Below the pieces are notes generated by a model. That model ran no database searches, was not told the DNA's origin, and worked only from the letters and a program-made list of their open reading frames with translations. A DNA stretch of 14,559 nt from Thermostichus sp. DRC_bins_24 (GTDB lineage: Bacteria; Cyanobacteriota; Cyanobacteriia; Thermostichales; Thermostichaceae): NCBI GenBank assembly GCA_039794845.1, contig JAUQVK010000068.1, positions 1-14,559 on the forward strand, given 5' to 3'. Of the stretch, positions 1 through 8,266 are shown one piece after another; position 1 is the first letter of the stretch; each line of letters starts with the position of its first letter. Made by a program: the position numbers and the translations under genes.

Positions 1-62
1 ATGGGGCTTTTAACGGGGCCAACCCTATCAAAATAATCGGGCTGTCGGTAATACGGCCTGGA

Positions 63-335
63 GGCTCCTGGTTATCCTGTGGGTTGAAGGAGATAGCCGG
101 AGGGCGACTGAAGGGCTTTTGGAAAGCCCGCGACTGCGTAAGCCGTCAGCATCGGGAAGACGTTACGTGTTTCCTGAGCTTTGCCGACGGGATGTCCCAC
201 CGTCAAAGGCTTGCCGTTGAAGACTGCGTTATTGTGGCCGCGGTCTGGCTTCAAACCGCAGTAGAGGCAGGAGTGCCCTCTACCCTAGATTGTTCTGGAA
301 ACCCTCTGATTGAGAGGAGCGGGCTGGCCGGAGCT
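63..335 (+). ncRNA. Candidate structured non-coding RNA (~270 nt), family not recognised
   Basis: A long-range helix 63-80/319-335 closes internal hairpins at 113-129, 143-190, 261-283, 285-298 and 303-317. Most non-Watson-Crick pairs read as G-U on the + strand. No recognisable protein is encoded in any frame. Confidence 0.4.
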
Positions 336-336
336 G

Positions 337-515
337 TCCTTCTTGGGGCCATTTCACCCAAGAGGTATTGACTCGCCAGGAGGTGGCTCAGAGCCATTTC
401 CTGCGGAAGCATCCCCTGACCCGCTAGGGGATCCCGTGGCCACTTTCACAACACCTCCTCTCACCTGCTCAGGTCACGGGGTCTGACCTACAGCATTGAA
501 GGCCCCAACGATGGA
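337..515 (+). ncRNA. ssrS: Probable 6S RNA (ssrS/ssaA)
   Basis: This is a ~180-nt rod-like hairpin. Pairings: TTGGGGCC 343-350/GGCCCCAA 501-508, AGGT/ACCT, GACTC/GGGTC, an asymmetric central bubble, AGGAGGTG 378-385/CACCTCCT 452-459, and apical ATCCCCT/AGGGGAT. The 3' strand CACCTGCTCAGGTCACGGGGTC resembles the 6S CACCUG...GGGUUC segment as I recall it. G-U pairs favour the + strand. The ends are approximate. Confidence 0.65.
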
Positions 516-547
516 GAATGGAATTGAATGTGGAACAGGCAGCGGGC

Positions 548-664
548 TCAGCGACGGCGGACTTTATCCTTTTGGCTAACAAAAATGATGGCGCCGAAGA
601 GAAGACCCAACACCACAGCACCAGCTACCAAGCTCCAGAGGAAGTTAGAAAGTGAGGCAGTCAT
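548..664 (-). CDS. psbX: Photosystem II reaction centre protein X (38 aa), not in the ORF track
   Basis: Manual translation gives MTASLSNFLWSLVAGAVVLGLLFGAIIFVSQKDKVRRR*. It has the PsbX signature MTxSLxNFLWSL, one TM helix and SQKDK. Confidence 0.95.
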   Translation of the reverse strand: MTASLSNFLWSLVAGAVVLGLLFGAIIFVSQKDKVRRR

Positions 665-6148: not shown

Positions 6149-7027
6149 GTGCACCATTCAATTTCAGGAACAACACAGCTGCTGGGTTTAATCGGGGATC
6201 CGGTGGGCCATAGCCTATCCCCGGCCATGCACAATGCTGCTTTGGCTGCCCTGGGGGAGAACTACTGCTATGTGCCTTTTCCAGTTGCCCCAAACCGATT
6301 GGCCACTGCCGTTGCCGGGTTAGCCGCCATCGGGGTGCGGGGGTTTAACGTTACCATTCCCCACAAACAGGCGATTTTGCCCCATTTACAACAGATCGAC
6401 AGTCGGGCAGCCGCTGTGGGCGCTGTCAATACGGTGTATCCCTTGCCGGGGGGCGGGTGGGGGGGCACCAATACCGATATTGATGGGTTTTTGCATCCCC
6501 TACGGCAGTTGGGCACTCTAAAACCCGGGATCCCGACCACTCTCCTAGGATCCGGTGGGGCAGCGCGGGCGGTGATCCAAGGGTGTTTGGAAGCAGGGCT
6601 ACAGCCGCTGCGGGTGGTGGGGCGCTCTCCGGAAAAATTGGACGCTCTCCGGCAAACTTGGCCGCAAATCCAGGTTCTGACCTGGGCGGATCTGGATCCC
6701 TGGCTGCCCCAAACCCAGCTGTTGATCAACACCACCCCGATTGGGATGCAAAAGCAGGGATCCGATGCCAAAACCACAACTACCTCTCCCCTGAGCAGGG
6801 AGCAACTCTCGCTTCTGCCCGCGGGCGCGATCGTCTACGACCTGATCTACGTGCCGGATCCCACCCTTCTGTTGCAAATGGCAGCCGAGCTGGGCCATAC
6901 CCCGATCACCGGCCTGGAAATGCTCGTTCACCAGGGGGCTGAGGCCCTCTCCCTGTGGTTGGGGGGAAAACCCGTGCCGGTAGAGGTGATGCGACAAGCC
7001 GCTCAACAGCAGTTGGCCCAGGTTTAA
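6149..7027 (+). CDS. aroE: Shikimate dehydrogenase
   Basis: Motifs GDPVGHSLSPAMHN, GFNVTIPHK, GAVNT, NTD, GSGGAARA, INTTPIGM, YDLIY and GLEMLVHQG are present. The start is GTG. Confidence 0.96.
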   Translation: MHHSISGTTQLLGLIGDPVGHSLSPAMHNAALAALGENYCYVPFPVAPNRLATAVAGLAAIGVRGFNVTIPHKQAILPHLQQIDSRAAAVGAVNTVYPLPGGGWGGTNTDIDGFLHPLRQLGTLKPGIPTTLLGSGGAARAVIQGCLEAGLQPLRVVGRSPEKLDALRQTWPQIQVLTWADLDPWLPQTQLLINTTPIGMQKQGSDAKTTTTSPLSREQLSLLPAGAIVYDLIYVPDPTLLLQMAAELGHTPITGLEMLVHQGAEALSLWLGGKPVPVEVMRQAAQQQLAQV

Positions 7028-7144
7028 CTCCATCAAGAATCCTCACAGAATATGAGCAACCTACAGATCCATCCGGATCCCGTTTGACTTGCGCCCTCAA
7101 GTTTCGATAGGGTTTGGGTGCGCAATGCAGCAAGGAGTAGGAGC

Positions 7145-8266
7145 ATGGCCAGTGTCACTTACGAGCATGTAACGAAGCGATACGGAGACACCACCGCCGT
7201 GCACGATCTCAATATCGCCATCGAAGACGGGGAGTTTCTGGTCTTCGTCGGGCCCTCCGGTTGTGGCAAAACCACTTCCTTACGCATGTTGGCCGGACTG
7301 GAAGAAATCAGCGCTGGATCCATCTACATTGGCGACCGGGTGGTGAACGAAGTCCCCCCCAAGGATCGGGATATCGCCATGGTTTTCCAGTCCTACGCCC
7401 TTTACCCCCACATGAGCGTGGCGGAGAATATGGCCTTCGGTCTGAAGTTGCGCGGCCTACCCAAGGTGGAGATCGAAAATCGCGTTAAGGGGGTGGCCAA
7501 ACGATTGGGCATTGAGCATCTCTTGAACCGCAAACCCAAGGAACTTTCAGGTGGGCAACGGCAACGGGTGGCGGTCGGTCGGGCCATTGTGCGCAATCCC
7601 GCCGTGTTTTTGATGGATGAGCCCCTTTCCAACCTTGATGCCAAGCTGCGGGTGCAGGCACGGGCCGAGATCAGCAAATTGCATATGCAACTGGGAACCA
7701 CCTTCATCTACGTCACCCACGACCAAGTGGAAGCCATGACCATGGGCAGCCGCATCGCTGTGATGAAGGATGGCCGCCTGCAGCAGATCGATACCCCCCA
7801 CACCCTCTACACCCACCCCACCAATATGTTTGTGGCCGGGTTTATCGGTAGCCCCTCCATGAATTTCTTTGAAGCGAAGCTGATCGAACAAGAGGGCACC
7901 CTGCTGATAGATACCGGGGCCTTCCGCGTCGCCATTCCCCCCCACAAAGCGGATCCCTATCGGCAGTACGTTGGCAAAGCCGTGATCTTCGGCATTCGCC
8001 CAGAAAACATTCACGATCCCCAGTACCAACCTCAAGGGATCCAACCCGCCTCCGTCCGGGCCAAAGTCTCCGTCACCGAACTGATGGGCAATGAGGTGAT
8101 CCTCTACCTAAGCACCAGCGACAAAGAAGGGATCCTGGCGGAGCAAGAGTTTGTCGCCCGTGTGGATCCCCGTACCGCCATTCATGTCAATCAATGGGCC
8201 GAGGTGATCTTCGACATGGATCGCTTTCATCTGTTTGACAAAGAAAGCGAACAGCGGCTGGGGTAG
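7145..8266 (+). CDS. Carbohydrate ABC transporter ATP-binding protein (MalK/MsmX/UgpC family)
   Basis: It has Walker A GPSGCGKT, signature LSGGQRQR, Walker B FLMDEPLSNLD, H-loop VTHDQ, FVAGFIGSP and a C-terminal TOBE-like region. AGGAG lies just before ATG 7145. Confidence 0.95.
   Translation: MASVTYEHVTKRYGDTTAVHDLNIAIEDGEFLVFVGPSGCGKTTSLRMLAGLEEISAGSIYIGDRVVNEVPPKDRDIAMVFQSYALYPHMSVAENMAFGLKLRGLPKVEIENRVKGVAKRLGIEHLLNRKPKELSGGQRQRVAVGRAIVRNPAVFLMDEPLSNLDAKLRVQARAEISKLHMQLGTTFIYVTHDQVEAMTMGSRIAVMKDGRLQQIDTPHTLYTHPTNMFVAGFIGSPSMNFFEAKLIEQEGTLLIDTGAFRVAIPPHKADPYRQYVGKAVIFGIRPENIHDPQYQPQGIQPASVRAKVSVTELMGNEVILYLSTSDKEGILAEQEFVARVDPRTAIHVNQWAEVIFDMDRFHLFDKESEQRLG

Follow-up and report, generated by a model that had tools for sequence, protein, structure and literature searches.

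The first few hundred nucleotides of a contig from the cyanobacterium Thermostichus sp. DRC_bins_24 (14,559 nt in total; referred to here as the window) raise the question of whether they encode a large structured RNA of a novel kind. An earlier note, made from the sequence alone, had read positions 38-335 of the plus strand as a multi-branched domain of about 270 nt that is closed by the pairing of 63-80 with 319-335 and packed with smaller hairpins. All of the helices that had been described are indeed present in the DNA. The hairpins 38-45/53-60, 113-119/123-129, 285-289/294-298 and 303-307/313-317 were found precisely where they had been placed, and the same holds for the complementary segments ACTGCG (223-228) and CGCAGT (257-262) and for GTAGAGG (261-267) and CCTCTAC (277-283). 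The minimum free energy structure of 38-335 on the plus strand contains the closing helix 63-80/319-335, and its stability (-126.7 kcal/mol) exceeds that of shuffled sequences (-113.2 ± 5.1 kcal/mol; z = -2.65), none of which folded as well in 200 attempts. The assignment to the plus strand was likewise correct, the moderate fold signal being stronger there than on the minus strand (z = -1.59; 14 of 200 shuffles as good).

We nevertheless favor, with considerable confidence, another explanation of this stretch: positions 1-166 very probably represent the 3' terminus of a tnpB insertion sequence that includes an omega RNA (reRNA) scaffold, and positions 187-335 are host DNA flanking the insertion, whose pairing with the element is fortuitous. 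A phmmer search of 1.84 billion representative proteins with the translated open frame from the start of the window recovered two proteins at E ≤ 0.001. One of these (P0001; 135 amino acids; E = 9.7e-5) aligned through its residues 77-130 with residues 3-55 of the query, and a BLASTP comparison of the window frame with this protein gave 35 identities in 57 positions. The upstream part of P0001 corresponds to the Cas12f1-like TNB domain of Pfam (PF07282; 7.9e-14), which represents the zinc-ribbon/RuvC-III end of TnpB, and P0001 is hence a C-terminal fragment of a TnpB protein. The other protein (P0002; 1124 amino acids; leucine-rich-repeat-like) was matched in eight short stretches and was discarded as a repeat or low-complexity match. 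Pfam did not yield any match for the ORF at positions 3-368 itself, and word-indexed protein searches with this ORF gave 29 candidates of near length and 1642 candidates of greater length, none of which passed.

An alignment of the window ORF with P0001 was used as the query for a scan of genome contigs, and 2 of the 38 pattern matches were confirmed. Each of them represents a complete element, one located at positions 492-1819 of a 2.9-kb contig from a Thermostichus metagenome-assembled genome (MAG; L001), and the other at positions 6834-8160 of a Tildeniella nuda sequence (L002). The two elements are 79% identical at the nucleotide level over 1333 nt, and the DNA flanking them on both sides is unrelated between the two. 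Both contain a full-length tnpB gene, with products of 398 amino acids (L001) and 399 amino acids (L002) in which Pfam recognizes the OrfB_IS605 and Cas12f1-like TNB domains. The TnpB protein of L002 matches 22 distinct solved Cas12f/TnpB-type chains; in tblastn searches it also matches plasmid genes annotated as 'RNA-guided endonuclease TnpB family protein', with a Gloeobacter morelensis gene (L003; 55.6% amino acid identity) as the best match. A search of plasmid DNA with the 3' end of the L002 tnpB gene returned no matches. The layout of the element, with a left end of about 105 nt, the tnpB gene and 25 nt past its stop codon, leaves no room for a tnpA gene, and it is best explained as a tnpB-only insertion sequence of the IS200/IS605 type with an IS1341-like organization. 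The left end (LE) and the TAM were not defined by the comparison of L001 with L002, which involves two copies. This element of approximately 1.33 kb is common to a Thermostichus MAG and to Tildeniella nuda, a distribution which suggests that it has spread between distant cyanobacteria.

The comparison with these relatives places a sharp boundary inside the stretch under study. Window positions 1-166 align with positions 1659-1819 of L001 (161 nt; 73.5%) and with positions 7993-8160 of L002 (168 nt; 76%), and every BLAST alignment of the window to its relatives stops at base 166. The last 13 nt before this point (154-166, plus strand) constitute a conserved terminal 13-mer of the element that is identical at positions 1807-1819 of L001 and 8148-8160 of L002; past it, the sequences of the window, L001 and L002 are mutually unrelated. 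The protein match to P0001 ends at the same place, at the residues ...REDVT encoded by 154-166, so that P0001 is the fourth copy in which the element ends here. Both the homology to TnpB elements and the boundary shared by these copies are direct observations. Neither L001-L003 nor the remainder of the window shows similarity to window positions 167-560, and a search of plasmid DNA with this segment gave no matches; the only repeat touching positions 1-560 within the window is a 30-nt, 70% pair at 761-790. Because all similarity stops at 166|167, the interval 38-335 straddles the right end of a transposon, and on this comparison we assign 38-166 to the element and 167-335 to copy-specific flank.

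Positions 1-141 of the plus strand are homologous to approximately the last 46 codons of tnpB in L001 and L002, and the fragment P0001 shares this homology. Judged from these alignments, position 1 of the window falls inside a tnpB-like gene, in its final codons; the part of the element visible in the window amounts to its last 166 nt, and the remainder of tnpB lies upstream of position 1. A TAA triplet (139-141) occupies the site of the conserved tnpB stop codon but is out of frame in the window copy. Because indels have shifted this TAA out of frame, the open frame runs on into the flank as far as position 371. The earlier note had considered that the frame 3-371 might be the C-terminus of a real protein; this proved right for positions 3 to about 140, which belong to TnpB; the remaining codons, up to 371, are read through as a result of indels.

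Relative to L001 and L002, the window copy carries a 9-nt insertion (81-89), a 7-nt deletion between positions 112 and 113 (ACTTCCT in the relatives) and a 4-nt deletion between positions 132 and 133, all given for the plus strand. The insertion lies in the loop of a hairpin at 64-105, and the 7-nt deletion takes out the CUUCC strand of a CUUCC/GGAAG helix that is predicted for L001 and L002 just upstream of the element end. In addition, the codon at positions 6-8 of the plus strand reads GCT (Ala) in place of the GAT (Asp) of L001 and L002, and P0001 likewise has an Asp residue here. This is the first position of the motif D-x-N-G-A-x-N-I, which aligns to 'NADYNAARNI' of solved Cas12f/TnpB-type chains and whose Asp is presumably the third catalytic residue of the RuvC domain. 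An intact RuvC triad (D, E, D) is consequently not found in the window copy; its third residue is Ala, and the positions of the first two lie upstream of the window. Residues 100-135 of P0001 read the last approximately 45 nt of the element in a frame other than that used by L001 and L002, as does the window copy. Because the tail of P0001 also uses an alternative frame, the frame shift in the window is by itself weak evidence for decay; in this TnpB family, the extreme C-terminus thus varies by frameshift among copies. Taken together, the Ala residue at the RuvC-III position, the indels and the loss of a guide-proximal helix strand make it more likely, as far as the sequence can tell, that the window copy is nuclease-dead or decaying than that it is active. 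Given that a predicted helix of its scaffold is lost, any RNA produced from this copy may be non-functional.

The 3' part of the element shows features beyond those of a protein-coding end. An RNAalifold consensus of four copies comprises 35 base pairs in local hairpins at 37-61, 64-105 and about 130-160; a further hairpin at 113-129 comes from the single-sequence fold and from the folds of L001 and L002, and the minimum free energy fold of 1-166, whose stability is at chance level (z = -0.42), retains the local hairpins. In the consensus structure, 90.6% of the cells are paired, compared with 31-46% when the partners are slid against each other, and six pairs are changed on both sides compared with zero to three in slid arrangements, a value reached by 1 of 500 shuffles; this test is weak, with four sequences, one of them distant (Gloeobacter), and a structure taken from the same alignment, which favors it. 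Synonymous positions point to the same region. Between L001 and L002, the final 38 codons agree at the third position in 32 cases, and the 360 codons before them in 206 (Fisher p = 9e-4; a test on one pair of copies), and identity rises from about the position that corresponds to window 25-40. Such high third-position identity is expected if an RNA or DNA signal overlaps the coding sequence. The local hairpins in four copies and the extra conservation at synonymous sites are observed directly, and we consider 37-166 to be probably a structured, plus-strand element of the non-coding RNA type, the 3' part of a putative omega RNA (reRNA) scaffold, with hairpins at 37-61, 64-105, 113-129 and 130-150, that overlaps both the tnpB 3' terminus and the right end of the insertion sequence. 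The hairpins and the synonymous-site conservation could also reflect right-end signals at the DNA level, for instance for recognition by a transposase, but an RNA is the most likely reading on the precedent of the family. No Rfam family was matched at the gathering threshold in L001 and L003. A sigma-70-like site on the plus strand (TTAACG, 16 nt, AATAAT; 10-37) is positioned directly upstream of the hairpin 37-61; it is absent at the homologous place in L001 and L002 and is probably a chance occurrence.

The precedent is provided by ISDra2, for which RNAs of about 150 nt have been described whose sequence is that of the tnpB 3' end and of the element's right end, except for approximately the last 16 nt of the reRNA, which derive from the flank (Karvelis et al., 2021; PMC8612924). 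We read the layout in the window as that of an RNA because its architecture matches the description of the ISDra2 reRNA (PMC8612924). Sharing the coding strand with tnpB, the putative scaffold overlaps the final codons at the 3' end of the gene and reaches the right end, and the copies diverge abruptly where a flank-derived guide would begin; with a start near the hairpin 37-61, the scaffold would measure about 125-135 nt, again in keeping with the reRNA. It differs in that no similarity to described omega RNAs was found at the level of sequence or of Rfam, in that the element is tnpB-only, and in that the window copy has no Asp at the RuvC-III position and carries indels within the scaffold. 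By analogy, the C-terminal codons of TnpB would overlap a guide RNA scaffold that is read from the same strand and ends at 166|167, and an RNA made from the 3' end of tnpB would read through approximately 16-20 nt into the flank. The first 20 nt of the flank (167-186, plus strand) are accordingly marked as the would-be guide on the model of the ISDra2 reRNA (PMC8612924). By the precedent of the family, such an RNA would be bound by TnpB, and 167-186 as a guide would direct the protein to cut the empty donor site. Apart from its own site, 167-186 has no match with three or fewer mismatches in the 14.5-kb window. The hairpins of 187-335 and the long-range pairing of this segment with 63-80 would then be fortuitous, 187-335 being host DNA that happens to lie beside the insertion.

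How do these findings bear on the proposal that 38-335 forms one multi-branched non-coding RNA closed by 63-80/319-335, be it an independent molecule or a 5' module of a 6S RNA? The stability of the whole stretch, unmatched by any of the 200 shuffles, the occurrence of the closing helix in its minimum free energy structure and the better folding of the plus strand all speak for it, yet we give it hardly any credence. The supposed domain is cut in two at 166|167, where homology ends, and a hairpin listed for 143-190 spans this boundary. Of the two arms of the closing helix, 63-80 forms the 5' strand of a conserved local hairpin (64-105) and pairs locally in all four copies; the 3' arm, 319-335, belongs to the copy-specific flank and is absent from the relatives. 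When folded separately on the plus strand, the two halves behave at chance level, with z = -0.42 for 1-166 (65 of 200 shuffles as good) and z = -1.59 for 167-335 (12 of 200), so that the departure from shuffled sequences holds for the composite stretch and not for its parts. The duplex between the arm 61-82 and the flank 167-335 reaches -25.7 kcal/mol, and its best form does not lie at the site proposed for the closing helix; 31 of 1000 dinucleotide-shuffled flanks matched this value, a count uncorrected for the choice of the arm, and several other 22-nt arms of 1-166 pair equally well or better with the flank. The single closed domain is therefore no more than chance and selection would give. 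The database searches do not favor it either. In the whole 14.5-kb window, no Rfam family was found at the gathering threshold, and at E ≤ 10 positions 1-1000 matched only SMCR2_2 (13.2 bits) and sR23 (11.7 bits), chance-level scores in view of gathering scores of 55 and 45, respectively; ARAGORN reported no tRNA or tmRNA genes. A resemblance to the raiA-motif RNA that the earlier note had mentioned amounts to a loose order of motifs, and no Rfam match to this family was found at the gathering threshold or, in 1-1000, at E ≤ 10. The suggested role as a 5' module of 6S RNA is likewise unsupported; Rfam finds no 6S RNA here, and adjacency is the only link between the two. We conclude that the stretch contains the ordinary end of a mobile element rather than a new class of RNA.

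Two further readings accept the TnpB-derived end but attribute more to its surroundings or to its protein. Compatible with the insertion sequence end as we describe it, although unlikely in our judgement, is a function of 187-335 as a promoter, a leader or a small RNA upstream of the neighboring segment 337-520. Several short perfect hairpins at 223-317 fit such a function, and so does the good folding of the next segment (336-525; z = -3.30, none of 200 shuffles as good). Nonetheless, 167-335 shows no strand preference in its folding, the minus strand (z = -1.66; 13 of 200 shuffles as good) equalling the plus strand, no promoter-like site was found in 187-335, and Rfam gives no match there; minus-strand ORFs at 72-254 and 251-412 are without a Pfam match, and a word-indexed protein search with the minus-strand ORF 254-412 produced no candidates. 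We therefore annotate 187-335, which has no similarity to the relatives, as copy-specific flank with several short hairpins, no assigned strand and no evidence of function. The other reading, which we hold to be very improbable, is that the element encodes a domesticated, nuclease-dead TnpB resembling TldR, an RNA-guided DNA binder or repressor whose fixed guide would be 167-186 or a segment close by. The Ala in place of the RuvC-III Asp codon would suit such a protein, as would the retention of the hairpins 37-61, 64-105 and 113-129 despite the indels, and nuclease-dead TnpB derivatives with guide RNAs are reported to exist (10.1101/2023.11.30.569447). The likeness to TldR (10.1101/2023.11.30.569447) lies in the combination of a scaffold of the guide RNA type with a neighboring protein of the TnpB family in which a RuvC residue is replaced. 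Against it stand the lack of any match to 167-186 elsewhere in the 14.5-kb window and signs of decay in this copy, namely frame-shifting indels and a lost predicted scaffold helix; moreover, a single substitution is weak evidence when the window shows one catalytic position and none of the more upstream part of the gene. Slimmer still is the chance that a dead TnpB of this thermophilic cyanobacterium, with an omega RNA extending into 167-186, acts at or near the psbX/6S-like locus described below. With the terminus of a tnpB insertion sequence abutting unrelated host flank as the preferred explanation, the consequence of the element for the host locus is probably nil.

The main value of this analysis lies in a correction: what appeared to be a new structured RNA of 270 nt is the end of a transposon joined to its flank. 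The 3' ends of tnpB elements combine secondary structure on the coding strand with, in many cases, a long open frame. A transposon end together with its flank can in this way mimic a structured RNA and constitutes a trap for structure-based scans. At the same time, the data add a family of cyanobacterial tnpB-only elements whose right end can be defined and whose 3' part supplies a candidate omega RNA scaffold, a family that could be of interest for the mining of compact RNA-guided nucleases from thermophiles.

The segment immediately downstream (337-520, plus strand) had been taken for a 6S RNA, an identification that Rfam does not bear out, neither at the gathering threshold nor, with E ≤ 10, within 1-1000; a separate search of 320-545 at the same cutoff gave three weak matches, none of them 6S. 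About 180 nt long, oriented on the plus strand, closed by a long stem and folding well, 337-520 is like 6S RNA (RF00013), but it differs in having no Rfam 6S match even at this permissive threshold. It may be a divergent 6S RNA, another RNA or nothing. Farther downstream, psbX (548-664; PF06596, 1.4e-21) and the genes for the catalytic chain of ferredoxin-thioredoxin reductase (789-1271; PF02943, 3e-38) and for a universal stress protein (1353-1757; PF00582, 2.2e-26) are all encoded on the minus strand, and these three genes converge on the end of the element from the opposite strand.
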